A stretch of DNA of 64,000 bases from an uncultured Chloroflexia bacterium (lineage in GTDB: Bacteria > Chloroflexota > Limnocylindria > Limnocylindrales > CSP1-4). How positions within the stretch are numbered: the first letter of the stretch is position 1; each line of letters begins with the position of its first letter. A program made the translations under genes and the position numbers. Location of the stretch: contig CAVYIM010000004.1 in assembly GCA_963768655.1 (NCBI GenBank), positions 1 through 64,000 on the forward strand. The letters run 5' to 3'. Below the pieces are notes generated by a model that saw only the letters and a program-made list of their open reading frames with translations, searched no databases and had not been told where the DNA came from. Shown here piece after piece: positions 1,987-14,412 of this stretch.

Positions 1987-3275
1987 GGCCGATTGACGCC
2001 CGCAAAGCCGGCCAGTATCGAGGACAGTCGCTCGTACTGGCCCAGGTAGTTGTAGACCTGCGCCGAGACTCGGACGAGCAGGTCGAATTCGGTCTCCGGC
2101 GCCAGGTCGCCCGAGTCCACGAGCCACGGACATGGCCACAGCATCAGCGGCGCCTCGAAGCGGCGGCCGCGCAGGGCGGCGTCGATCATGTCCATGCGGC
2201 GGGTCGCCTCGGCCCGGGACCACGGACCGCCGGGCAGCCTGATAGAGGCCATCGAGCCGATCATCTCCGTCGGAGCCTGGACCGCGGTGTGCATCGCGTC
2301 GGCCAGCATCTCGCCCGCCGCCACGGCCAGGTGGTGATTGAAGGACATGATCGAGGACCAGCCACCGGGGAGTATCTCGGCTATCCCATCGATCGCGGCC
2401 GGCCACGTCAACCAGGCGCTAGGGTCGAACGTGCCCTGCCAGTCGAACTCCAGCCGGAAGCGCGACCGATCCATTCGCGTGTCGTTCGCGCCGTGCGAGA
2501 TCGACAAGGGCTTGATGAGCGCCTGGCGGTCGCGGCGGACGTGCAGAAAGGCCGTGCCCTTCGGCGCGCACATCCACTTGTGGCCGTTGCCGGTGTAGTA
2601 GGCGGCGCCGAGCGTGTTCAGCTGGAGGGGCAGCATGCCGGGCCCGTGGGCGCCATCGACCAGAACGTCGACCCCCCGCTCGGCCAGCGCCGGCACCAGC
2701 CGCTCGAGCGGCATGATCAGCGCGGTCGGGCTGGTCACGTGGTCCAGGATCGCAAGCTTCGTGCGCGGGGTGACCGCCGCCATGATCGCGTCGAAGGCCT
2801 CGTCAGGCGAGGAGATCGGGAACGGGATGCGCGCCAGGACGAACTTGGCGCCGTCCTTCGCGGCGCCGTAGCGCACCGCGTTCAGGGTGGCGTTGTAGGC
2901 GTGGTCGGTGGCGAGCAGCTCGTCGCCCTTCTCGAAGCGGAGCGAGCGCAGAACCGTGTTGACTCCGGCGGTCGCATTGGTCAGGAGCGCCAGATCGTCG
3001 GGATCGGCGCCCACGAACGCCCCGATTTCGGAGCGGCACCAGTCCAGCAGGTCCTCCAGCTCGTGAGCGAGGAACCGCACCGGATGAGCTTCCAGTTTGT
3101 CTCGCCAGCCCTTCTGGACGTCGAGGATGGCTCTCGGGCACGCCCCGAACGAACCGTGATTGAGGAACGTCACGGTCGAGTCCAGGGCCCAGTCGGCTGC
3201 CGGCGACGGTGCCCTCGAAAGCGGAAGCTCCTTCTCGATCACTTCTGGTGCGGGCTCCTTGCCAGCGGATGCCAC
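1947..3275 (-). CDS. Aminotransferase class V-fold PLP enzyme (isopenicillin-N epimerase / EgtE-like C-S lyase family); start uncertain (3275-3416)
   Basis: FLNHGSFGACP, DHVTSPTA, DGAHGPG and the PLP-lysine motif GNGHKWMCAPKG. Confidence 0.85.
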   Translation of the reverse strand: MASAGKEPAPEVIEKELPLSRAPSPAADWALDSTVTFLNHGSFGACPRAILDVQKGWRDKLEAHPVRFLAHELEDLLDWCRSEIGAFVGADPDDLALLTNATAGVNTVLRSLRFEKGDELLATDHAYNATLNAVRYGAAKDGAKFVLARIPFPISSPDEAFDAIMAAVTPRTKLAILDHVTSPTALIMPLERLVPALAERGVDVLVDGAHGPGMLPLQLNTLGAAYYTGNGHKWMCAPKGTAFLHVRRDRQALIKPLSISHGANDTRMDRSRFRLEFDWQGTFDPSAWLTWPAAIDGIAEILPGGWSSIMSFNHHLAVAAGEMLADAMHTAVQAPTEMIGSMASIRLPGGPWSRAEATRRMDMIDAALRGRRFEAPLMLWPCPWLVDSGDLAPETEFDLLVRVSAQVYNYLGQYERLSSILAGFAGVNRPQAGPAPSTSATG

Positions 3276-3726
3276 CGGCCAATGCGGTGCCGAGGGCGCG
3301 CCTTGACCCGGTGGGCGAGACACTCGCTCTAGGGATCGGTCGGAAACGGTTTTCCCATCATGCCCCATGCGAATGGGTATTGCATCGACCATTGACCGGG
3401 CGTAGGTTGGATGCAATCTCCTACGTGCCCCGGTATGTCAGGAGGCCAGATGCGAGCGCCGATGACGGCCAGAGATACGCGACTCAATCGCGATGACGGC
3501 GGGACCTCCCCGCTGACGGCCGATCCGAACTGCGACGTATCGAACCTGCTGTTCAGGCCCAGGGCCGGCAACGTCAGCGGTGACACTCGAGCGGGCCTCT
3601 CATCGCGGTAGGGGTCAGCGGCCTCTACCGCACGCGAGTGCCAGGACCGGCGCAGACCGCGCCGGTCTTGTGCTATCCGGGGGCCGCGGACGGCAGACGG
3701 CGTGTCCGCGCCGCTTCGGCTGCCCC

Positions 3727-5010
3727 TTACTCCGGCAGATGCAGCCGGTTCGCCCGAGCGATGTCTCCGAGGAAGTGAGCCGACGGCTTGACCGTCCGCT
3801 CCTGGGTCTGGCGATCGACCGCGATCAGGCCAAACTGCATGGCGTAGCCGCTGGCCCACTCGAAGTTGTCGAAGGCGCTCCAGTGAATGTAGCCCTGGAG
3901 CGGGATGCCGTCGGTGATGACTTCGTGGAGGGAACGCAGTCCCTCGGTGATGAACTCGATGCGCTCCGCGTCGTTCGTCGTGGCGATGCCGTGCTCGGTC
4001 ACCACGACCGGCTTGCCGGGCAGGAACTTGGCCGCCCGCCGGACCGTGGCGGCGACCGCCTGGGGGCGGAACTCGTAGCCCATCTGGGTGGTCCGCATGG
4101 CCGGATCGTGGCTGGTCCCGAAACCGCCATCTCGCTGGCGGGCGATCACGCGTGCGACGGCGACCTTCTCGACGGGCGGGATCGCCAGCGCCAGGCTGGC
4201 GACGATCCCGGCCGCACGGGGCATTTCGAGCCGGGCCCGCGTGTACGTCTGGACGCCGATGAAGTCGTCATCGGCGGCGGCCTCGAGGAAGACGTCTTCC
4301 ATGAGCCGGCGGGCGTACTTCATGATCGGCGCGCCGCCCGCGTTCGACTCCCATTCCTGCATGGCGTTCGTCAGGCCGACCTTGGCCTGGGGTCGCAGCT
4401 CCTTCGTCGCGGCGCGAGAGGCCTTATGCGCCGCGGCCAGCGCAACTGTCGCTGCCTTCCAGCTCTCGGCGCCGTGGAGGCCGGGCGGAAAGGCGAACCC
4501 GCCGCCGTAGCCGCCGAAAGCCACCACGCCCGGCTCGTTCAGCGTGCAGTACCAGTCGACGTTGTCGCCCAGCGCACTGACGACGCGACGCGTGTACCGC
4601 TCGAAGAGACCGGTGATGGAGGGCGATAGCCAGCCGCCGCGATCCGCAACCCACTTGGGCAGTGTGAAGTGGTTGAGTGTGACGATCGGCGTGAGCTTGC
4701 TCTTGCGGCATAGCTCGACCATCTTGCGGTAGTGATCGAGCTGAGTCTGGTCGAACGTGCCTTCGTTCGGCTCGATCCGGGCCCACTCGACCGAGAAACG
4801 GTAGGCATTGAAGCCGAGGCCGGCCAGCAGCGCGATGTCGCGCGGATAACGCGTCTGGTGCTCGATCGCGTTGCCGCTGGGCTCCTTGCACGGTGTGCCC
4901 GGCTTGAGCTCGAAGTCCCACCAGTCGCTGTTGGTGTTGTTGCCTTCGACCTGGTGGGCCGCGGTGGCCGTCCCCCAGAGAAACCCGTCGGGAAATGCGA
5001 TGTCGCTCAC
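3727..5010 (-). CDS. Glycoside hydrolase family 1 (beta-glucosidase-like)
   Basis: FPDGFLWGTATAAHQVEG, YRFSVEWARIEP, acid/base motif TLNEP, nucleophile motif VTEHG, WSAFDNFEW. GTG start at 5010; the upstream part of ORF 3727..6144 is not homologous. Confidence 0.9.
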   Translation of the reverse strand: MSDIAFPDGFLWGTATAAHQVEGNNTNSDWWDFELKPGTPCKEPSGNAIEHQTRYPRDIALLAGLGFNAYRFSVEWARIEPNEGTFDQTQLDHYRKMVELCRKSKLTPIVTLNHFTLPKWVADRGGWLSPSITGLFERYTRRVVSALGDNVDWYCTLNEPGVVAFGGYGGGFAFPPGLHGAESWKAATVALAAAHKASRAATKELRPQAKVGLTNAMQEWESNAGGAPIMKYARRLMEDVFLEAAADDDFIGVQTYTRARLEMPRAAGIVASLALAIPPVEKVAVARVIARQRDGGFGTSHDPAMRTTQMGYEFRPQAVAATVRRAAKFLPGKPVVVTEHGIATTNDAERIEFITEGLRSLHEVITDGIPLQGYIHWSAFDNFEWASGYAMQFGLIAVDRQTQERTVKPSAHFLGDIARANRLHLPE

Positions 5011-5397
5011 ATGCGGAGAATAGCGGGTGATGGCACGGCCTGTGGGCGCGCCGGGCCAAGCAACCGATGGGGACCACCGCCGGCCGCGGCGCGACCGCGG
5101 GTCCTGTTTTGCCGATTTCCCATGAGGAGGACATCTGGATAAGGCCCCGGGCGCCGCAGCGCATCCATTCCCGGTCGACATCCCAGGCGGACTCGGAGGC
5201 GGCCGATTTCGGGCAGGTCGCGCCGTGCCGGGCTGCCAGATGCCGTCGTTCCCGCCCCGACTCGAGCCGCGTCGCGGCCCATCGCCCGAGCAGCATTGCC
5301 CAATGTCCGCGTGATGGGAGTTGGGAAATGTCGTGGCGTCGACCGGCCGCGGCGAACCAGGACTCGCGGCTGCCGGCCGCGGCGCGATACTTGCGCC

Positions 5398-5985
5398 ATG
5401 GCCGACGAACAGCGCATCCAGCCCGAGTCGAGGGCTGCCTGGCGCGCCTGGCTGGAGGCGCACCACCGGCAGGACTCGGGCGTCTGGCTCGTCACGTGGA
5501 AGAAGCGCGCGGGCAAGCCCACCGTCACTTACGACGAGGCCGTGGAAGAGGCGCTCTGCTTCGGCTGGATCGACGGCGTGCTGGGCCGGGTCGATGACGA
5601 CCGTTCGATGCAGTGGTTCGCGCCCCGCAAGCCCCGCAGCACGTGGGCGCGTTCGAACAAGGAACGCGTCGCTCGCCTGGAGGCGGCCGGCCTGATGAGC
5701 GACGCCGGCCGACGAGCCGTCGAGCTCGCCCGCGCCAACGGATCCTGGGAATTGATGGATGTCATAGACGCGCTCGTCGTGCCCGAGGACCTGGCCGCGG
5801 CGCTCGCGGAACAGCCGGGCGCGCGGGAATGGTTCGACGCGGGCTCGGCCTCGGTCCGGCGGAGCGCCCTGGCATGGGTCTACCAGGCGAAGCGACCCGC
5901 GACTCGAGCTCTCCGCGTCGCGCAGGTCGCCGGCATTGCCGGGCGCCGCGAGCCCATCTCGAGCTTGTGGCAGCGCCGCGACTGA
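5398..5985 (+). CDS. YdeI/OmpD-associated family protein
   Basis: AWRAWLEAHH, YDEAVEEALCFGWIDG, PRKPRSTWARSNKERV, VPEDLAAAL. ATG at 5398. Confidence 0.88.
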   Translation: MADEQRIQPESRAAWRAWLEAHHRQDSGVWLVTWKKRAGKPTVTYDEAVEEALCFGWIDGVLGRVDDDRSMQWFAPRKPRSTWARSNKERVARLEAAGLMSDAGRRAVELARANGSWELMDVIDALVVPEDLAAALAEQPGAREWFDAGSASVRRSALAWVYQAKRPATRALRVAQVAGIAGRREPISSLWQRRD

Positions 5986-6052
5986 ACGCGGCCGAGGCGG
6001 TGGGGGCTGGCCTGGGCCGCCACGGAGTGGCGTTCGGCCGGCGCAGGTTCCG

Positions 6053-6721
6053 CTAGTTCGATGCCGGCACGCCGGCACCGCCCGGCTCGAGCCCCGAGGG
6101 ATCGGCCAGGCGGGCGACGACGTTGCCGCTCGAGTCTCGGGCATCGATCTCGACGATGTCGGCGCCCGGGGTCGCCGTCACCCAGGCGAGATAGAAACCG
6201 CTGCCGACCGTCGCCATGTGCCGCTCGCCGTCGGACGTCACGATCTCGATCGAGGCGGCCGCGTTGGGCGCCCGGCCGATCACCATCGCCGATCCCGTCT
6301 GGCTGGTCGCCGGCTCATTCGCAGTTTCGTAGGTGAGCTGGTCGCTTGCCCGCGGCTCCCAACCGCCGATGCTCGTGACCGCCGACGCCCCGAAGTTACC
6401 GTCAGCCCCGCGCCACGTCTCGCAGGTCAGCACCGACGACCCGGACGTGAAGAGCAGCACGCTCACCTCCGGCGAGTCCTGACGGACGGCCAGCTGCCAC
6501 GTGAAGTTAAGCGTAGCGCCGCCCTTGACCTCCGAGTCGGGGAGATGGCAGGACTCGATCGTAGAAACCGACACGGGCGTCGGCGTCGGCCCCGGAGCGG
6601 CCGCCGGCCGGCTGGCCACGACGCCGACCGCCACGCCGACCGCCACCAGCAACGCCACAGCGACGCCGAGCCTGCTCATCGAGAGAACTCTCATGCCCCA
6701 CCTCCGTGACTTCACGAACAA
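6053..6721 (-). CDS. Secreted or membrane-anchored hypothetical protein (start uncertain)
   Basis: N-terminal hydrophobic helix, PTPTP linker, two Cys, C-terminal ATVGSGFYLAW. Confidence 0.65.
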   Translation of the reverse strand: MFVKSRRWGMRVLSMSRLGVAVALLVAVGVAVGVVASRPAAAPGPTPTPVSVSTIESCHLPDSEVKGGATLNFTWQLAVRQDSPEVSVLLFTSGSSVLTCETWRGADGNFGASAVTSIGGWEPRASDQLTYETANEPATSQTGSAMVIGRAPNAAASIEIVTSDGERHMATVGSGFYLAWVTATPGADIVEIDARDSSGNVVARLADPSGLEPGGAGVPASN

Positions 6722-6803
6722 CCCTCGAGGCGTTGGATGCGCAAGTCAAGCAGTCGGACCACGGCAAAGGGCCTGGTGGTCCTGGGTCACACCGCCGGTT
6801 CGA

Positions 6804-7031
6804 TCAGCTCTCCGTCGCCTTGGCAGGATCGGGGGTTGACTCGTTCTCGCCGCCGCCTTCAGGCGGCTCGGCTGGGAATTCCCACTCGTCCGCCGGTCCA
6901 GGCTCTCCGGGACCCATGGTCAGCGGGTTCATCGGCACCAGGAATCCGCCGCCCCACATGTCTGCCGGATTGAGGAACAGGCCAAGGTTCTTCTCGGCTT
7001 CCGGTCTTTCGTCACCGTCCATCGGAGTCAC
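6804..7031 (-). CDS. Small acidic hypothetical protein
   Basis: 75-aa ORF between the tRNA and the 6053 gene, same strand; no recognisable motif. Confidence 0.4.
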   Translation of the reverse strand: MTPMDGDERPEAEKNLGLFLNPADMWGGGFLVPMNPLTMGPGEPGPADEWEFPAEPPEGGGENESTPDPAKATES

Positions 7032-7211
7032 CCCCGGGTTCTCGTCGTTACGTTTCGACGTCTCGCGCCGGTGCTGCCGGCAACAGGGCCGCCGGTCGCG
7101 CCGGCCCCTACATCTGGGGGACCCGCTCGAGACCCGATTCGTTCACACCCGGCGAGGCTGCGGAGCGAAGTCCTCCCTCACGGCCCGCCATCGGGCAGCA
7201 GCGGGGGAAGT

Positions 7212-7287
7212 TGGTCGGGGCGGTGGGATTCGAACCCACGGTCTCGTGCTCCCAAAGCACGTGCCTTAGCCGCTAGGCCACACCCCG
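7212..7287 (-). tRNA. tRNA-Pro (anticodon TGG), CCA encoded
   Basis: Reverse complement CGGGGTGTGGCCTAGCGGCTAAGGCACGTGCTTTGGGAGCACGAGACCGTGGGTTCGAATCCCACCGCCCCGACCA folds as a cloverleaf with anticodon arm CGTGC-TTTGGGA-GCACG and GGTTCGAATCC T-loop. Confidence 0.97.
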
Positions 7288-7510
7288 ACGAGTTGAGCGT
7301 GGATATAACAGGATACTCGACGTGTCTGCGGCTGAGGACGAACCTTCAGCGCTTGGGACTCCTTGGATGGAGAAGGATGAGTTCGCCGCCCTGGGCGTGA
7401 ACTGGGCTAGAGGCGGACGCATGCTCGGAACCTGGCATCCCAAGCAAGACGCCTCCGCTCTCCGATTGCCAACGCCACCTCCGACGCCAGGCGCTACGGC
7501 GCGTATCGGG

Positions 7511-7548
7511 TTGACTGACTTCGCCCGCCCGCTATCATGTAGCACATG
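7511..7548 (+). promoter_or_regulatory. Sigma70-type promoter for a probably leaderless padR transcript, with an overlapping palindromic operator
   Basis: TTGACT (7511-7516), 16 nt, TATCAT (7533-7538), ATG at 7546. Inverted repeat CATGT-agc-ACATG at 7536-7548. Confidence 0.6.
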
Positions 7549-7902
7549 GTACCAAGCGGCACAAGGCACACGCTCACAGAACTTCGGAAGGGCGTGGTCG
7601 AGCATTGTGTCCTCGCGCTCATCTCCGAGGGCGAGTCCTACGCTTTCGACATCGTTCGGGTCCTCGCGGCGCGTGACTTCGTGACGAGCGAGGGGACCAT
7701 CTATCCGCTGCTGTCAAGGCTTCGCAACGATGGGCTGGTAACCACCATGTGGCGCGAGTCGGAGGCCGGGCCGCCGCGTCGCTACTACAGGATCACCGAG
7801 GACGGACGCCGGGCACTCGATGCGTTCGGCTCGGACTGGGCGAGGTTCCGGGACGCGGTCGATGGTCTGCTGGCGGGTGCAGTCGAAGGGAGGGGTGCCT
7901 GA
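7546..7902 (+). CDS. PadR family transcriptional regulator
   Basis: ELRKGVVEHCVLALI, SEGTIYPLLSRL, WRESEAGPPRRYYRITEDG. Confidence 0.93.
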   Translation: MVPSGTRHTLTELRKGVVEHCVLALISEGESYAFDIVRVLAARDFVTSEGTIYPLLSRLRNDGLVTTMWRESEAGPPRRYYRITEDGRRALDAFGSDWARFRDAVDGLLAGAVEGRGA

Positions 7903-8453
7903 TGGAAGCCGAGCAACTCGTTCGTGACTACCTGAGCCGACTCGATGCCAGGGCCCGCCGGCTCCCGGTCGATCGACGAGTGGAACTCATAGCCGAAGTC
8001 CGGGAGCACATCGAACTCGCTGTGAAGGAAGCCGGCAGTCGTGACGAGGCGACGATCCGAACCATCCTTGATCGGCTCGGCTCGCCTGAGACGATCGTTG
8101 CCGCCGAGGAAGGCGGCGAGCACGGCGACGTATCAGACTCGGCGGCGCCTCCAGCGCCATCAACCCAATCCGAATCCAGGTGGGGGCTGCTGGAGACGAT
8201 CGCAGTACTGCTGGTCACGGTCGGCGCGGTGCTCCTGCCGATCTTCGGACCCCTCGTGGGCATCGTGCTGATCATCGTCTCGACCCGGGCGACGTGGCGG
8301 ACGAAGTTCATTGTGTCCACCGCCGGAATTGCACTGACTGGCCTGCTCTTGCTTCTGATTGTCCCAGTGGGAAGAGGGGGGCCACCGCCGGCGACGGCAA
8401 TACCAGCCCCGACGCCGATCTACACGTCATCTCCGAGGCCCGAAACACCATAG
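7902..8453 (+). CDS. HAAS/DUF1700-type membrane protein (PadR partner)
   Basis: TGATG coupling to padR; YLSRLDARARRLP...ELIAEVREHIE...ILDRLGSPETIV followed by hydrophobic helices. Confidence 0.8.
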   Translation: MEAEQLVRDYLSRLDARARRLPVDRRVELIAEVREHIELAVKEAGSRDEATIRTILDRLGSPETIVAAEEGGEHGDVSDSAAPPAPSTQSESRWGLLETIAVLLVTVGAVLLPIFGPLVGIVLIIVSTRATWRTKFIVSTAGIALTGLLLLLIVPVGRGGPPPATAIPAPTPIYTSSPRPETP

Positions 8454-8550
8454 GGACCAGATTTCTCCTGCCGCGAACCCACATCGAGGAGAGGTGGCCA
8501 AAAGGACGACAGAGCATCACTGTCGAAGGGAGCGGGCGCGGATATAGCAG

Positions 8551-8622
8551 GATAATCGACAGTTCCAGCGCTCGGCCCCTCACGCTCAGGAGCCCCTCGG
8601 CTCCACCGCTTATCGGCTGACG
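8551..8622. repeat. Conserved cassette right-end sequence, copy 1
   Basis: Ungapped match to 10252-10323: 61/72 by manual count, last 22 nt identical. Confidence 0.9.
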
Positions 8623-8661
8623 GCTCCCAAAGCACGTGCCTTGCCGCTAGGCCACACCCCG
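8623..8661 (-). repeat. Displaced tRNA-Pro 5'-half copy (att junction between cassettes)
   Basis: Identical to 7248-7287 except for a 1-nt D-loop deletion. The next 36 nt (8662-8697) match 7288-7323 at 31/36. Confidence 0.92.
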
Positions 8662-8855
8662 ACGAATTGAGCGTGAATATCGAAGGATACTCGACGTCCT
8701 AGCCTTGGAGGCTGGACCTCCACCGCTCGTATAGCGGCTGCGCGTCAGTGGGACTTCGCAGCGGGTGAGCGAGCGATCCGATCGACCTCTTCAGGCACGG
8801 TCCATTCTACGGCCCCGGGCGAGCTTGGCGAGTTGCTCACTACGCCAGCAAGATT

Positions 8856-8880
8856 GAACGTTGCGGCCATCTCGGTCGTC
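8856..8880 (+). promoter_or_regulatory. Putative ECF sigma-dependent (autoregulatory) promoter
   Basis: GAAC (8856-8859), 17 nt, CGTC (8877-8880) upstream of the ECF sigma gene. Confidence 0.5.
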
Positions 8881-9065
8881 TAGTGGCGGACAAGTTCCCA
8901 GAACGAAGACAAGGAGGCGCCACACGGCGCGACGCGACACGGACGAAGTCATCATGCACCGGGGCTGTTCGGATGACTGCCAGCGAGTCTAGCCTCGAGG
9001 AGCGCGACTACTCTATTGAGCGAGGGCGGCAACCGTGCCGAACTAGTTGGGGAGCTGAGAGGGAA

Positions 9066-9569
9066 ATGACGAGCGGGCACGACGAGCAGGCGGACGCATT
9101 CGCGGGCTGGGCGCGACAGAGGATGCCCGACTCGTACCGTCTGGCCGTCGCCATCCTGCGAGACGAAGTCGCCGCGCAAGATGCCGTCCAGGACGCCGTG
9201 ATTCGGGCCTGGGTCGCCTGGCCACGGCTGCACGATCAGAGCCGGCTCGATCCGTGGCTCGACCGGATCATCGTCAACTGCTGTCGAGACCGCCTCCGAA
9301 AGGAAGCTCGGAATTCACAGGCCATGCGGGCTCTCAGGCTGGATGGCCACGACCCGCAGTCGGACCCGAGGGTTGATGCTCTCCGGCAGGCGATGGTGCG
9401 CCTATCGCCAGACCACCGAATCGCAGTGACGCTTCGCTATTTCGATGATCTCTCGATCGAAGAGATCGCTCGACGAACCGGATGCCGAGAGGGAACGATC
9501 AAGTCACGCCTCCATTACGCGCTAATAGCCCTCCGAGCGGCCTACGACGCGACGGAGAGAGGAAAGTAG
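9066..9569 (+). CDS. ECF RNA polymerase sigma factor (sigma70 group 4)
   Basis: Region 2: YRLAVAIL...AQDAVQDA...WLDRIIVNCCRD. Region 4: LSPDHRIAVTLRYFDDLSIEEIA...GTIKSRLHYA. ATG at 9066 after GAGAGGG. Confidence 0.92.
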   Translation: MTSGHDEQADAFAGWARQRMPDSYRLAVAILRDEVAAQDAVQDAVIRAWVAWPRLHDQSRLDPWLDRIIVNCCRDRLRKEARNSQAMRALRLDGHDPQSDPRVDALRQAMVRLSPDHRIAVTLRYFDDLSIEEIARRTGCREGTIKSRLHYALIALRAAYDATERGK

Positions 9570-9575
9570 GGCGAC

Positions 9576-10127
9576 ATGACAGGCGACCAATTCGATGACG
9601 ATCTACGGCGAGTCGTCCATGACTACGCCGACGCCGAGCCGCCGCTCGCGCTCGAAGAATGGCTCGTGGATCTCCCGGCCAGCGCGACGCGGCCCCGTCG
9701 GTCGCCGATGACGTTCGTCAGGCCGCTGGCCGCCGCTGCCGCGGTGCTCGTGATCTCCGCTCTGGCGTTCAGCGTCTATTGGTCTCGCTCAGGCCCAGCG
9801 GCACCAGCGGCCCTCCCGTCAGGGCAGCCCCTCACAATTGTCACCGAGCCGGTGTCCCGTCCTGGCGCCCCGTGCCTAACGGCCTTGTTGTCGGGGATCG
9901 AGATGAAGCGGTCTGGATCGGAGATCATCTTCTCCCTACCCGACGGGGTCGCAGGCATCACATGGCCGTATGGGACAAAAGCGCTGCTCGTCAACGGAAT
10001 AGCCGAGTTGTTCGCCGCAGACGGAACCCTGATCGGCACCGAAGGACAGACACTCCCGGACTTCAGCGGTGGATTGGGCGTGGACAATCGTTTTCACGTC
10101 TGCGAGATCAGCGGCCGCGACCATTAG
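9576..10127 (+). CDS. Single-pass membrane protein, probable anti-sigma factor
   Basis: 6 nt after the ECF gene; short cytoplasmic N-terminus (FDDDLRR), one TM helix, Cys-containing ectodomain. Confidence 0.72.
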   Translation: MTGDQFDDDLRRVVHDYADAEPPLALEEWLVDLPASATRPRRSPMTFVRPLAAAAAVLVISALAFSVYWSRSGPAAPAALPSGQPLTIVTEPVSRPGAPCLTALLSGIEMKRSGSEIIFSLPDGVAGITWPYGTKALLVNGIAELFAADGTLIGTEGQTLPDFSGGLGVDNRFHVCEISGRDH

Positions 10128-10251
10128 CCCTGGACCAGACACAACTGCGCCGGTGCGATGGTGTTCGGGGTCGTTGCACCGGCGCAACCTACAGCTCGTG
10201 TTCTCGCGCGCAGCTCAACCCGCGCCGGCAACTCGCGCAGGCATATCGCAC

Positions 10252-10323
10252 AATAATCGACAGCTTCACCGCTCACCCTCTCGCGCTCAGGAGTCCCTCA
10301 ACTCCACCGCTTATCGGCTGACG
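10252..10323. repeat. Conserved cassette right-end sequence, copy 2
   Basis: Direct repeat of 8551-8622 at offset 1701. Confidence 0.9.
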
Positions 10324-10363
10324 GCTCCCAAAGCACGTGCGTTAGCCACTACGCTACACCCCG
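10324..10363 (-). repeat. Displaced, probably original chromosomal tRNA-Pro 5' half
   Basis: CGGGGTGTAGCGTAGTGGCTAACGCACGTGCTTTGGGAGC, 36/40 identical to the intact tRNA. Its upstream sequence differs from the other two copies and has its own -10 TATGAT (10378-10373). Confidence 0.88.
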
Positions 10364-10448
10364 AGCTGCGCAATCATACGGCTCCCGAGCGGCGTGGCGG
10401 TCGCGATGCGCCGCCCAGTGTGGGCCGGCGTGCGCAAACGGCGGACCG

Positions 10449-11657
10449 TCACGGATGCGCCGGACCCGGGTCGTACAGCTCGGCCGAGGCGAGACTCCCC
10501 GAGTCGCCGTCGCCTCCGACGATCAGGACCCGACCGTCGGCCAGCAGAGTCGCCGTGTGGTTGCGGCGAGCGGCGGCCAGCGAACCGTTGAGGGTGAAGG
10601 TCCCGCTCGCCGGGTCGTACACCTCCACGGAGGCAAGCACGGCGAGGTCGTAGCCGCCGGCGATGAGGACGCGGCCGTCGGGCAGGAGCGTCGCGGTCTG
10701 GCTCCCGCGGGCGGTCGCGAGCGAGCCGGTCGGGCTGAAGGTTCCGCTCGTCGGGTCGTACAGCTCGGCCGAGGCGACACCCAGGACATCGTAGCCACCG
10801 GCGACCAGCACGCGGCCGCCGGTCAGCAGCGTGGCGGTGTGGGCTGAGCGGGCCTCAGCCATCGATCCGGTCGGAGTGAACTTGCCGGTCCCCGGGTCGT
10901 ACAGCTCGGCCGAGGCCAGGGAGTCCGTCCCATCGAACCCACCGGCGATGAGGACGCGACCGTTGGCAAGCCTGGTGGCCGTGTGGTTGTCACGAGCTTG
11001 AGCCATCGAGCCGGTCGGCGTGAACCTGCCGGTCTTCGGGTTGTACAGCTCGGCCGACGAGAAGGGCACGCCGTTGCCGACCATGCCGCCGGCTATCAGG
11101 ACCTGGCCGTCGGTCAGCAGCGTGGCGGTGTGGAAGTAGCGGGCTGTGGCCATCGATCCGGTCCGGCTGAACGTGCCGGTCTTCGGGTCGTATAGCTCGG
11201 CCGAGGTGGCGAAACCTGAATTGTCCCAGCCTCCGCCGATGAGAACCCGACCGTCGAGGAGCAGCGTGGCCGTGTGTCCCATGCGCGGGCTCGTCATCGA
11301 GCCCGTGGGCGTGAACCGTCCGGTCGCCGGGTCGTACAGCTCGGCCGAAGCGAGAGCAGTCGAGCCGTCAGCCGAGCCTCCGGCGATGAGCACCTGGCCG
11401 CTCGCCAGCATGGTTGCCGTCTGACTCTCTCGGGCGCCCGGCATCGAGCCTGTCCGGCTCGACCCATATGTCGGCGCCGGCGAAGCCGCGGTCGTCGGGG
11501 AAGGGGCCGGGCTCGGGCTTGGCGCCGCGGTGGGAGTCGCGACTGCCGGCGAGGGAGTGGCCGACCGTGCGCCGCAGCCCACGACAGCGAACGCAACAAG
11601 CGCGGCGATGAGGCACAGGCGAGGCGCCCGCGGGGTGGACCGTTGGCTCAGGCGCAC
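10449..11657 (-). CDS. Kelch-repeat (beta-propeller) lipoprotein
   Basis: Six repeats of GSM..AR..HTATLL.DGRVLIAGG...SAELYDP; lipobox VVGC; Pro/Ser/Thr linker. Confidence 0.88.
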   Translation of the reverse strand: MRLSQRSTPRAPRLCLIAALVAFAVVGCGARSATPSPAVATPTAAPSPSPAPSPTTAASPAPTYGSSRTGSMPGARESQTATMLASGQVLIAGGSADGSTALASAELYDPATGRFTPTGSMTSPRMGHTATLLLDGRVLIGGGWDNSGFATSAELYDPKTGTFSRTGSMATARYFHTATLLTDGQVLIAGGMVGNGVPFSSAELYNPKTGRFTPTGSMAQARDNHTATRLANGRVLIAGGFDGTDSLASAELYDPGTGKFTPTGSMAEARSAHTATLLTGGRVLVAGGYDVLGVASAELYDPTSGTFSPTGSLATARGSQTATLLPDGRVLIAGGYDLAVLASVEVYDPASGTFTLNGSLAAARRNHTATLLADGRVLIVGGDGDSGSLASAELYDPGPAHP

Positions 11658-11711
11658 GGACGACCGCCGGGTTCGGTGATGCTGTCAGCGGTTTCCACGA
11701 CACTCCCGCGG

Positions 11712-11921
11712 CTAGAAGTCGGTGATCCTGGTCGCCCGGTCGAGGTACTTCGCGCGGAACTGCGCGTTGAGGCGCAGGACCTCGGCCTCGGGCCCGACGA
11801 AGGAACAGCGCAGGCAGTAGTACTCGCCCCTGACCGCGTCGAAGAGCATGTCCATGTCGATCTCCCGCATCAGGCAACGCGGGCAGCGGTAGTTCAGCTT
11901 GCCTTTTCGACCTTGAGCCAT
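11712..11921 (-). CDS. Small zinc-ribbon protein (CPRC...CLRC), 69 aa
   Basis: MAQGRKGKLNYRCPRCLMREIDMDMLFD...YYCLRCSF; GGAGAG upstream; overlaps the end of the upstream gene by 28 nt. Confidence 0.75.
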   Translation of the reverse strand: MAQGRKGKLNYRCPRCLMREIDMDMLFDAVRGEYYCLRCSFVGPEAEVLRLNAQFRAKYLDRATRITDF

Positions 11922-13726
11922 GTGCGCAGCTCTCCAGTCCCGCGGACGGTCTTGGTGATGCCCAGGGTGAACATCGGCGAGAACGCCATGCCCTCGCGCA
12001 GGTAGCCTGCCGCATCGGGCGAGTCCGAGCGCATCGAGAGCCGGGTATCCAGCTGGGGCACCAGGGCCTCGGCGGAGATCACACCTGCGACGGTCGCCTC
12101 GCGGCACCGATAGGCATAGTCGATCGATGCGGAGCCGGACTGCCCCTGCAGGCCGAGGCGCACGCCGGTGAGATCCTCGGGATACTCGGTCGTGCCGTAG
12201 CAGGCGGTGACGTACTCGTCGAGCTCGACCTCGGCATCAGGGTCGCTCGAACGCACGATCCGGCGCACGATCTCGATCTCGCCGCTGCCCTCGACCAGGC
12301 GGAAGATCGAGACCACGCCGATGCTGAAGCGCTCGAACTCGATGTCCACCGGATCGAGAGTCAGGACGCGGGTGTCGCCCGCCTCGGAGAAGGAGGCGTG
12401 GGTGCGGCAGGCGCACAGGTCGACCTCCTCGCCGCCATGGCGGAAGCGGGCGCTCTTGATGGCGCCCTCGCCGGCGTAGTGGGTGAAGTAGCCGGCCCGG
12501 TAGAGCGACTGGACCAGGAAGGGGTAGGAAGCGTCCGCGATGTGGGCCGTACCCACGCCGCAGGGCCGCACGAGCTTGGCCGCGTAGGGCCGCAGGTCGA
12601 TCAACGCGCCGCCCTGGTTCATGTCCAGGCAGAACCGCATCGCCGGATCGGCGAACCAGAACTGCTGGCGCTCCGAGCCATACAGGATGTCGCGCCAGAG
12701 CGTGCATTCGGGCCGGCTGTACGGACGACCCGCCCGGTAGGCGTCGGCGAACTCGCTCAGCGTGAGATCGAGCGCCTGGCCTTCGGCCTTGAGCCGGCCG
12801 TAGTAGGCCATGCCATCTTGGTAGCTCTTGCGCAGGAAGTCGTAGTCGGCCTCCCAGCGGCCGCCCTTGCTCATCCAGCCCGGGCCCACGAACATCATGT
12901 TGTAGGCGTAGCCGCGGTTGTAGGCCGCCATGGCCCGGTACTGATCCACTAGGTTGGCGAAGTAGGGGATCTCGCGGTCCTCGTAGACCATGCCGCGCAG
13001 GATGTTCTGGGGGTGGGTGCCGTAGTAGGAACCCGGGCCGTCGAACACGGCCATGAGGTCGCGCGAGAGGTGCGGGACGGCGACGATGCCGATGTCGTCG
13101 GACTCGTCCGAGGCGGGGCAGTGGATGTTGCGCCGCGAGGGTATCCAGGGGTTCCAGGGGCCGCCGTCTAGGAGGGTGTACCAGGAGTTGTTGGCGTTGT
13201 GGTAGGCCTTGGGCCCCTCTTCCCAGCACGTGGCCACCGCGGCCTTGACCGCCGGATAGCGCTCTTTGATGTAGCTGACCAGCTCCGCGTCCATGTAGTA
13301 GGAGCCGGTCGAGGTCGGGGCGAAGCCGAAGACCGCCTCGAACCTGCCGAAGACCTCGTCGACGATGGCGCGCTTGTCCGCCATCGAGAAGAGCCAGATG
13401 GCGAGCTCTCTTGAGTGGAACTTCTCGCGGAACTGGGCGCACTGCAGGCCCAGGAACGTCAGGCCGATCTCGTCGCCGTACTGCTCGTGGTCCGCCCTGG
13501 CCATGGCCACGGCCGCCTCGTTGAAGAGGCTCGCGTAGGTCATCTGGATCGTCGTCCGGATGCCGTTTTGGTGGGCGATGCGCTGCTGCGTGCGGAAGAT
13601 GTCCAGCGACTCGCGGATGACGGCGCTGCGCGCGAGATCCTCGGCCTTGCCCTCCTGCGCCTCGCGCTGGAGGTACTCGGGCACCATCTCGGGCCGGTGG
13701 ATCACGGTCAGGTAGAAGGTCGTCAT
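11894..13726 (-). CDS. Uncharacterised 610-aa protein, possible NodB/GH57-like barrel carbohydrate-active enzyme
   Basis: Clean, aromatic-rich ORF with an AAAGGA RBS. YGDEIG and PWIPSRRNIHCPA resemble DUF3863-type proteins (from memory, unverified). Confidence 0.65.
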   Translation of the reverse strand: MTTFYLTVIHRPEMVPEYLQREAQEGKAEDLARSAVIRESLDIFRTQQRIAHQNGIRTTIQMTYASLFNEAAVAMARADHEQYGDEIGLTFLGLQCAQFREKFHSRELAIWLFSMADKRAIVDEVFGRFEAVFGFAPTSTGSYYMDAELVSYIKERYPAVKAAVATCWEEGPKAYHNANNSWYTLLDGGPWNPWIPSRRNIHCPASDESDDIGIVAVPHLSRDLMAVFDGPGSYYGTHPQNILRGMVYEDREIPYFANLVDQYRAMAAYNRGYAYNMMFVGPGWMSKGGRWEADYDFLRKSYQDGMAYYGRLKAEGQALDLTLSEFADAYRAGRPYSRPECTLWRDILYGSERQQFWFADPAMRFCLDMNQGGALIDLRPYAAKLVRPCGVGTAHIADASYPFLVQSLYRAGYFTHYAGEGAIKSARFRHGGEEVDLCACRTHASFSEAGDTRVLTLDPVDIEFERFSIGVVSIFRLVEGSGEIEIVRRIVRSSDPDAEVELDEYVTACYGTTEYPEDLTGVRLGLQGQSGSASIDYAYRCREATVAGVISAEALVPQLDTRLSMRSDSPDAAGYLREGMAFSPMFTLGITKTVRGTGELRTWLKVEKAS

Positions 13727-13953
13727 CGAAGTCCTTTGTGCGTGAGTCTTGCCCGTTGCCGCGGACGCTCTCGTCGGCAGCGGAGCTGCCCGCCCCCCAG
13801 GCGTCAGGCGATGATGATAATGCCGCGTCGCCTGCGGACCCGTTGGGGGCTGGCAACCACCGGCGTCGGCCGCTCACAAGGCTGGCGGGCGACCCTGGGG
13901 CCCGGTACGATTCGCCGCAGTTGGGGCCGCGCCTTCGAAAGTGGGAGAGGCAG

Positions 13954-14412
13954 ATGACGGACGGGAACTGGAGCGACTACGTCGCCGACGCCGGCTCGGA
14001 TCCGGCCGCGCTTTCGGACGTTTCCGCCGACATGGGCGGCGCGATCGATTCGACCCAGGCCGGGCTCGGTGCCATCGATTCGACCGACCTGCCGGGCCCG
14101 CTGGCGGACGACGTCTCATCGGCCGGGTACAACCTGGATGAGGCATCGAGCTGGCAGCAGTGGGCCGACGGCGACCTGGCCAACGTCGCCAGCTGGCAGG
14201 ACGACGCCGCGGGCGACGTGGCGGACGCGAACGCGTGGGCCGCCTTCGGCGACGCGGACGCCGCGCAGGAGGAGCTCGGCTCCGCCCAGACGGCATCGGA
14301 TATCGCCGCCGAGGAGGCCGGCACGGCCTCGACGGACCTTTCGATCGGGGCCGACTACTCGGACTCGGCGGCCGACAACCTTTCGGACGCCGGCTCGGAC
14401 TCGAGCTTGTAG
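13954..14412 (+). CDS. Extremely acidic hypothetical protein (152 aa)
   Basis: GGAGAGG RBS then ATG at 13954; D/A/S-rich; 15 nt upstream of the next gene. Confidence 0.7.
   Translation: MTDGNWSDYVADAGSDPAALSDVSADMGGAIDSTQAGLGAIDSTDLPGPLADDVSSAGYNLDEASSWQQWADGDLANVASWQDDAAGDVADANAWAAFGDADAAQEELGSAQTASDIAAEEAGTASTDLSIGADYSDSAADNLSDAGSDSSL

Follow-up and report, generated by a model that had tools for sequence, protein, structure and literature searches.

How did a single tRNA gene come to have upstream of it two further copies of its 5′ half, each closing off a small unit of unrelated genes, with no recombinase gene at hand? This question is raised by a locus in the metagenome-assembled genome (MAG) of an uncultured Chloroflexia bacterium (3.37 Mb in 9 contigs, 88.6% complete), from which we analyzed one stretch of 64,000 nucleotides, positions 1-64,000 of contig C4 (the window). 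The gene is that of tRNA-Pro(TGG). The unit adjoining it, cassette 1, encodes a PadR-family regulator and a membrane protein with a HAAS domain, and the next one, cassette 2, encodes an ECF-type sigma factor. An initial annotation, made from the sequence alone, had described these units as integron-like mini-cassettes accreted in the tRNA gene by replacement of its 5′ half. We consider it probable that the locus represents the tandem accretion of two non-autonomous, integrase-less derivatives, of the cis-mobilizable element (CIME) type, of a family of tyrosine-integrase islands that use tRNA-Pro(TGG) in reversed orientation.

The search with ARAGORN revealed one tRNA only in the window, tRNA-Pro(TGG) at 7212-7287 of the minus strand, which is the sole Pro-TGG gene among the 51 tRNAs of the assembled genome. 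Two further copies of its 5′ half lie on the same strand, copy 2 at 8623-8661 (39 of 40 aligned columns) and copy 3 at 10324-10363 (36/40, or 90% identical to copy 1, the half within the intact gene). The copies span tRNA positions 1-40, and in all three the homology to the tRNA stops at the same base, after ...TTTGGGAGC of the tRNA strand, two nucleotides into the 3′ strand of the anticodon stem. The window contains exactly three occurrences of the 17-nt core GCTCCCAAAGCACGTGC, against 0.25 expected, and none of 100 shuffled sequences reached three; the array is more than chance. ARAGORN, alignment and the core count thus confirmed the intact gene and the two half copies broken at a common point that the initial annotation had reported. 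The end sequences are present at only these three places in the assembled genome. No fourth, degenerate 5′-half copy was found when one was sought beyond the 402-aa Kelch-repeat gene (10449-11657, with internal 141-nt repeats) that lies directly distal to the array.

Both units are accordingly bounded by direct repeats of a part of the tRNA gene, one of which lies inside the intact gene, and each element supplies the 5′ part of the tRNA and sits upstream of it. The tRNA-Pro(TGG) gene itself is chimeric: its 3′ half (7212-7247) is resident, while the 5′ half (7248-7287) and the upstream region come from the latest insertion. The CTTAGCC allele of this 5′ half travels with cassette 1 both in the window and in another genome described below. 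Copy 2, which came with cassette 2 as its core and 5′ half, has CTTGCC in place of CTTAGCC, and since the two alleles differ in this way the crossover of the last insertion would be placed within 7248-7267, that is in the anticodon stem-loop. Copy 3 is a different allele again and is joined to an upstream sequence of native type (AATCATACGG; 10324-10382 with the half itself, minus strand). This allele and its upstream resemble the single-copy site beside the tRNA in the congener G017 and the distal copies in G011 and G005, and copy 3 is most likely the resident original 5′ half. The claim that insertions replace the 5′ half of the tRNA was upheld.

Core-to-core spacing, which we used as unit size, is 1375 bp for unit 1 and 1701 bp for unit 2. 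The cargo of the two units is unrelated and their ends are homologous: the right ends are 85.9% identical over 71 nt (84% over 110 nt) and the left ends 86.1% over 36 nt (79% over 85 nt), in line with the unit sizes and the manual end counts given earlier. The right end modules occupy 8533-8622 in cassette 1 (about 85-90 nt) and 10234-10323 in cassette 2. The left ones occupy 7288-7357 in cassette 1 (about 70 nt), where the module is now the upstream region of the functional tRNA gene and probably has promoter function for it, and 8662-8775 in cassette 2, where the stretch includes a former integrase upstream region. All four were assigned to the plus strand. When 17 right ends, drawn from 14 genomes or contigs, were aligned, a common block of about 85 nt emerged, which starts sharply at ATCGCACAATAATCG and reaches the core; nothing is conserved upstream of it. 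For the left ends 18 candidate rows were collected by script, of which about 15 align in a common block of about 70 nt after the tRNA 5′ end (G014_+12155, G033 and cL094_-251 were disregarded).

Both modules contain, in the same orientation, a Box A (CA[GC][GA]ATA[AC]TCGAC) and a Box B (CTTCA[CG]CGCT[CT]G). Box A is found on the plus strand at 7309-7321 (CAGGATACTCGAC), 8548-8560, 8683-8695 and 10249-10261, with one further match, at one mismatch, inside the PadR gene; the 64 kb contain 5 matches to the pattern, where 0.32 would be expected. Inspection by eye also showed an inverted pair, CACGCTCA / TGAGCGTG, centred on the anticodon loop. Each unit thus appears to have kept both attachment sites, having a core, a left module and a right module like those of the integrase-bearing members of the family.

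Such members were identified in other genomes, in agreement with the expectation of autonomous relatives that share these ends and encode a recombinase, here a tyrosine one. At the same tRNA-Pro of the congener G001 the left module is followed by the gene for integrase P0001, by about 13 kb of cargo and by the right module with a 5′-half copy. P0001 is a tyrosine recombinase of 316 aa, encoded 120 nt from the 5′ end of the tRNA and divergently from it (PF00589, 97 bits; N-terminal SAM-like domain, 44 bits). A contig from another MAG, L094, contains a 5.1-kb unit encoding a Replic_Relax protein and an integrase 83% identical to P0001, and this unit is followed in the array by an integrase-less unit of 1.7 kb encoding a Fic/DOC protein. 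In both cases the integrase lies inside a unit, between two cores. Integrases 69-100% identical to P0001 were present in 14 of the 251 sampled genomes of the family, and tRNA-Pro(TGG) adjoins an integrase of this type in 10 of 11 further loci fetched. Within the genus an integrase more than 68% identical to P0001 was found in G001 only (1/51). In another genome, G036, a weak match (E 0.12, 12/13) to integrase residues 298-310, the C-terminus, stands beside a truncated right module and is possibly a second integrase remnant.

The element of G001 (L031 7272-19901 and L032 up to 8327) is an intact defence island of 13 kb. Its cargo includes a type IIL restriction-modification enzyme resembling MmeI (927 aa) and an ATPase-TOPRIM nuclease of the OLD family (520 aa). 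A further open reading frame (ORF), of 621 aa, has a weak similarity to reverse transcriptases, which at 26.1 bits stays under the Pfam cut-off; a helix-turn-helix ORF, its match also below the Pfam cut-off, adjoins the integrase. No conjugation genes were seen in the two annotated intact relatives, G001 and L094, only the Replic_Relax protein in the latter.

Comparison with P0001 revealed the trace of an integrase gene in cassette 2. The whole genome was searched for recombinases with the profile families PF00589 and PF00239, and none of the matches lies inside the window. The earlier statement that no recombinase is recognisable therefore stands for complete genes and profile matches, and it does not hold for fragments: tblastn, translation and alignment to P0001 located an integrase gene stub at 8776-8883 (plus strand), of which 8776-8844 matches residues 1-23 of P0001 in 18 of 23 positions. 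The start codon ATG has become ATC; the homology can be followed to about 8845, and a stop closes the frame at 8883. The similarity is not confined to the stub, as window positions 8623-8840 are 87.4% identical to L031 7233-7455 of G001, from the tRNA 5′ half through the region upstream of the integrase and into the gene. Since cassette 2 keeps both this upstream region and a 23-codon stub, it is a deletion remnant of an integrase-encoding island. The initial annotation had counted such an origin of the units as an argument against itself; it applies to cassette 2, with its stub and upstream region, and cassette 1 contains no remnant. Beside its attachment sites the window has nothing of an own tyrosine integrase other than these 23 codons, and the units are, as had been proposed, unable to move on their own.

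Between the stub and the right module cassette 2 carries its cargo. The sigma-70 factor of ECF type (8883-9569, plus strand; PF08281, PF04542, PF04545 and PF07638) is a listed ORF of 228 aa, for which the ATG at 9068 looks, by eye, like the real start. The next gene (9576-10127, plus strand) encodes a protein of 183 aa with one hydrophobic segment and no match to a Pfam family; its position after the sigma gene is what suggests that it may be anti-sigma-like.

The occupancy of the site varies among relatives. A 171-nt junction query had matches in 34 of 36 congeners in a first draw and in 43 of the 51 genomes of the whole genus. At least 11 of the loci fetched have two or three cores, with units of 411-5108 bp and differing cargo, such as an MFS transporter (G014, G061) or a NAGidase (G005, and in second position G006); several units encode no Pfam family. 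A nucleotide search for the window's cargo was negative in all of the first 20 loci fetched from relatives. In G017 there is a single core followed by upstream sequence of native type, like that after copy 3 of the window, and this is apparently an empty site; it was inspected by eye, and four more loci (G009, G004, G015, G071) were classed as single-core and native-type by a crude script only. Presence at the syntenic site is thus variable and includes unoccupied sites, and the varying cassette number, differing cargo and at least one apparently empty site that had been predicted for relatives were all found. In a wider sample of the class the junction pattern, consisting of the end of the right module and the core, was present in 17 of 401 genomes, all of family f1 (16/137, in 9 genera), and in none of the 263 genomes of four other families; the control with the reversed pattern gave 0, and a search of viral contigs found nothing. 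G014 and G061 have a two-unit array in common, in which identity amounts to 89.4% over 2992 nt and that of the flanks to 70-74%; transfer of a composite would fit this.

Not all units of the genus have ends of the standard form. A native-like tRNA upstream replaces the left module with Box A, the right module and 5′ half being normal, in L036 (G005), L033 (G006), L096 (G070), L035 (G011), L041 (G023) and L038 (G032). In G031 (L044 2590-6439) two full tRNA-Pro(TGG) genes lie 3.8 kb apart, with native-type upstream at both. Tandem duplication of tRNA-Pro as in that genome was considered as a source of the native-type left ends and rejected, the NAGidase unit not being located between the two tRNAs of G031. 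A nearly cargo-less unit was observed in G035 (L040 8182-8340), where about 20 nt at most separate the left module from the distal part of a right module, with a degenerate core behind it; the unit may have arisen by recombination between the Box B copies of its two modules.

The evidence for spread of an integrase-less unit comes from cassette 1. Its PadR-family transcriptional regulator (7546-7902; 118 aa; PF03551, 74 bits) and its membrane protein with an N-terminal HAAS domain (7902-8453; 183 aa; PF22564, 48.7 bits) are encoded on the plus strand behind a promoter-like site at 7511-7538 (TTGACT-16-TATCAT, 10/12). In the metagenome contig L081 (JGI) synteny with the window extends to both flanks, at 70.7-78.1% nucleotide identity. 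The contig contains tRNA-Pro, cassette 1 and one 5′-half copy (a unit of 1374 bp) and continues into the chromosomal flank, with neither cassette 2 nor the Kelch gene. Identity between the two cassettes is 97.5% for PadR, 97.3% for HAAS (the protein has a 96% identical counterpart), 95.5% for the promoter and 5′ untranslated region (7502-7545), 92.6% for the non-coding stretch 8454-8532, 84.7% for the non-coding stretch 7358-7501, 85.6% for the right module and 76.4% for the left module. The coding DNA of cassette 1 is thus about 20 points more similar than that of the flanks. In both genomes the cassette's own 5′-half allele adjoins the tRNA 3′ half, and both copies are integrase-less and have the same boundaries. 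Such identity, 97% in cassette 1 against 71-78% in the flanks, points to horizontal spread of an integrase-less unit. The economical reading is that cassette 1, already integrase-less, entered at least one of the two lineages after their split. It was probably already so on entering the host lineage, and the cross-species similarity suggests that it was mobilised in trans by a related integrase. A 316-aa ORF beside the tRNA in L081 and its antisense partner were also considered as integrases and were rejected after tblastn as low-complexity frames of GC-rich DNA.

Other samples were compared in the form of assembled Logan contigs; no run contained more than 0.28 of the sampled words. Contig joints were read in X1, X2, X3 and X5, and uncovered parts (the flanks, and cassette 2 in X1 and X3) were not used as evidence. 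In four runs from four studies cassette 1 forms a separate contig ending at the repeats (7269-8571; 30 other and 18 gap letters), and in two of these runs another contig shares the right end only. Two joints, 8662 to 10242 and 8664 to 10282, are anchored on both sides by 30 letters of the repeated tRNA half, separated by unknown letters; we take them to stem from other arrays, in other organisms. At 7325-7329, within the left portion of cassette 1, contigs of three runs have 17 inserted nt, which look like a tandem duplicate of the adjoining sequence. Another metagenome contig (L091 1-2007) carries a PadR-HAAS operon 90.7% identical to window 7502-7984, whose upstream contains neither a tRNA nor a left module. 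The homology begins at 7502, just ahead of the promoter-like site, and this operon may represent the chromosomal source of the PadR-HAAS genes or a larger parent element.

Taken together, these data can be accommodated in the following model. In the circular element the attP would have the right module on one side, the left module on the other and, between them, the 5′ half of the tRNA as far as the anticodon loop. A crossover in the anticodon stem-loop of the chromosomal gene would place the element upstream of this gene, so that the element's 5′ half and upstream region complete the tRNA and the resident 5′ half, with its AATCATACGG-type upstream, is displaced outwards. Repeated insertion would give a polarised array, in which cassette 2 with the sigma factor pair would have come first and cassette 1 later. 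An internal deletion removed the integrase gene of cassette 2 except for its first 23 codons. Cassette 1 would have needed an integrase in trans, or in cis from an accreted autonomous element; more generally, remnants bounded by attachment sites could be carried along, or moved, by the integrase of an autonomous member. This model agrees with the three-step accretion published for CIMEs, and with what has been proposed for the integrase-less ssrA islands of Dehalococcoides and for degenerate tycheposons, which are compared below. The polarity fits: the distal copy is a different allele with native-type upstream, and the PadR unit is found alone in another species. In this respect the initial annotation, which had placed the newest unit next to the tRNA 3′ half, was supported.

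Several observations weigh against this explanation. No cognate integrase of the P0001 type was found in the host genome, in an assembly that is 88.6% complete, and the nearest one encoded there, 47% identical to P0001, is situated at tRNA-Gly(CCC) in classical 3′ orientation. No integrase remnant was detected in cassette 1 by tblastn with E up to 10, and its origin by deletion is assumed. The native-type left ends are not predicted by a simple attP x attB model, and P0001 has no recognisable arm-binding domain and no room for one of the lambda type, though the modules resemble arm sites. The NAGidase unit is 88.8% identical between G005 and G006, against 72-87% for the flanks (best 87.1%), a value that fits vertical descent and does not discriminate. 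The end modules (left 76%, right 86%) are less conserved between window and L081 than the cargo (97%), and the pair therefore shows no sign of selection on the ends. Neither excision joints (7287 to 8662; 8661 to 10364) nor circle junctions nor the restored site were present among the joints listed, which come from assembled Logan contigs only. It is also possible that the locus was exchanged by homologous recombination, with the tRNA and the repeat as anchors.

These points bear on an alternative in which the units are dead remnants, decaying and fixed leftovers that have been immobile since the integrase was lost, the likeness of cassette 1 in the two genomes being due to homologous replacement by transformation or transduction. 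The stub in cassette 2, the lack of a cognate integrase and of excision products among the listed joints, and the end modules being no better conserved than other non-coding DNA between window and L081 would all be consistent with it. In addition, the block of high identity in L081 runs from the tRNA to the 5′-half copy, which could have served as short recombination anchors. However, these anchors are only 76 and 39 nt long and lie in flanks of 71-78% identity, and cassette 1 brings its own 5′-half allele into both genomes. A right module of about 85 nt with a sharp boundary is moreover kept in 17 units with unrelated cargo, and the array of L094 joins an integrase-bearing member to an integrase-less unit. 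On balance we regard immobility of the units as rather unlikely.

Much less probable still is a true integron-like platform, that is, dedicated capture of cassettes at tRNA-Pro, formed and shuffled as integrase-less units by a recombinase encoded elsewhere, the integrase-bearing units being cassettes with an integrase as cargo. The sharp bounds of both modules whatever the cargo would agree with such a platform, as would cargo of mostly one or two genes and the numbers in the genus, where at least 14 integrase-less units in 11 genomes compare with an integrase in 1 of 51 genomes. Yet no recombinase gene lies on the chromosomal side of the array in the window, in L081 or in the fetched relatives; where an integrase is present it is within a unit, as in G001 and L094, and the stub of cassette 2 indicates descent from an autonomous element. 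The ends consist of a tRNA half and linear modules, in which no attC-like structure was defined (no folding test was made). The PadR operon has its own promoter-like site, which could be counted for cassettes of this kind and equally departs from the integron scheme. The array is not integron-like, as the initial annotation had called it. An assembly artefact, or simple local duplication of the tRNA 5′ region, we consider so improbable as to be negligible. The genome is indeed metagenome-assembled, and repeats of 40-110 nt can mislead assemblers, but the independent contig L081 shows the tRNA, cassette 1 and the 5′ half in a unit of 1374 bp, more than 10 further genomes have analogous arrays, each of the three 5′ halves is an allele of its own, and the two units carry unrelated cargo.

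In the wider family of integrases two arrangements only were seen. Those at least 50% identical to P0001 are encoded divergently from the 5′ end of tRNA-Pro, Val, Ala, Thr or Gly-CCC, and those with 46-47% identity have the same 5′ arrangement at tRNA-Arg(TCG). Others, 44-50% identical, lie after the 3′ end of tRNA-Thr, Arg-TCT, Gly-TCC, Gly-CCC or Lys. The family thus splits by orientation (loci L051-L080 and L107-L117), members nearer to P0001 being on the 5′ side and more distant ones on the 3′ side. The closest paralogues of the tRNA-Pro integrase (62-68% identity) are located beside tRNA-Val or tRNA-Ala in other genomes.

Other tRNA genes of the host genome have neighbours of related form. 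Further 3′ tRNA fragments were found at tRNA-Thr, Lys, Gly and Ser. On contig C7 (L106, 2121-2913) tRNA-Val(GAC) has an upstream unit of about 690 bp, whose end is formed by a right module like those described above (CACAATAATCGAC ... CACCGCTCGG) together with a degenerate 5′ fragment of tRNA-Val. On contig C5 (L105, about 2800-14400) tRNA-Leu(TAG) is followed by four copies of its 3′ part, 39-42 nt long, 100% identical and 1.7-4.8 kb apart; the units between them are built of Kelch-repeat genes in tandem (about 380-430 aa), with no match to PF00589 in this region.

A broader proposal can be put forward only tentatively and is, in our judgement, more doubtful than not: in this poorly studied family of soil and peat bacteria a clade of short XerC/D-like integrases, reversed at at least six tRNA species, might deal mainly in miniature cassettes rather than in islands. 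Such cassettes, integrase-less and with one or two genes between a left module of ~70 nt and a right module of ~85 nt that share Box A and Box B, would be passed between species in trans by rare integrase-bearing members, and each transfer would rewrite the 5′ half and promoter of an essential single-copy tRNA. The result would be a cassette-exchange system anchored in tRNA genes, functionally parallel to integrons and of independent origin. If mobilisation in trans does take place, small regulatory modules and single enzymes or transporters could cross species by means of a recombinase that only a few percent of genomes encode. The locus offers a sequence-resolved example of how islands anchored in a tRNA gene could decay to minimal cassettes bounded by attachment sites and stack, in a lineage known only from metagenomes. 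The rarely reported orientation that replaces the 5′ half would here be the rule for a whole integrase clade. Turnover of the elements directly rewrites an essential gene, since the 5′ half and upstream region of a single-copy tRNA are exchanged, and the pairs of integrase and site are candidates for orthogonal site-specific recombination tools.

Among known systems integrons share with the array the order of small recombinase-less units, the newest nearest to the insertion point. They differ from it in having a platform: no intI, attI or Pc is found beside the array and no recombinase within 64 kb, the units have no common promoter, and cassette 2 comes from an integrase-carrying element. A study of Dehalococcoides (PMC3146451) describes tandem islands at ssrA with direct repeats of the target RNA gene, 15 of which have no integration module and are suggested to be cis-mobilizable. 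Those islands employ a serine recombinase, the 3′ end of tmRNA and a 20-bp repeat, in contrast to the tyrosine recombinase, tRNA 5′ half and 40-nt repeat with modules seen here. The tycheposons of Prochlorococcus, as described in a preprint (bioRxiv 10.1101/2020.12.28.424599), have partial tRNA copies between neighbouring elements, newer elements that push older ones out, and degenerate elements with fragmented integrases. The likeness, judged by architecture only, lies in the tRNA-anchored tandem with partial tRNA copies and degenerate members; the host lineage differs (soil and peat MAGs), and no tycheposon replication module is present in the window.

Recombination with the 5′ part of a tRNA gene is described in PMC6563490 as 'considerably less frequent' than with the 3′ part, with reference to Zhao & Williams 2002 and a few archaeal cases. 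As in those elements, the 5′ portion and the upstream signals are supplied by the element, which is located upstream of the gene; unlike those isolated cases, a series of integrases on several tRNA species is seen here. CIMEs, as outlined in PMC5704250, have lost the integration genes and kept attL and attR, and accrete in three steps; the ICESt1/3 family of Streptococcus thermophilus is the example given there for CIME accretion (Pavlovic 2004 and Bellanger 2011, as cited in PMC5704250). The units of the window likewise have both attachment sites and stand in tandem at the target gene, via a regenerated site, and they are free of integration and transfer genes (Pfam scan of the four cargo ORFs; genome-wide search with PF00589 and PF00239). 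CIMEs are mobilised by the integrase of a related element, and the similarity of cassette 1 across species suggests that the same may apply here. In contrast to CIMEs, the units are tiny (1.4-1.7 kb, one or two cargo genes) and the orientation at the target is reversed, towards the 5′ half. The closest concept is a CIME in tandem accretion in the rare 5′ orientation; the concept itself is known, and what is new here is a variant of it with miniature units in this orientation, end modules with sharp bounds and an integrase-less unit copied across species.

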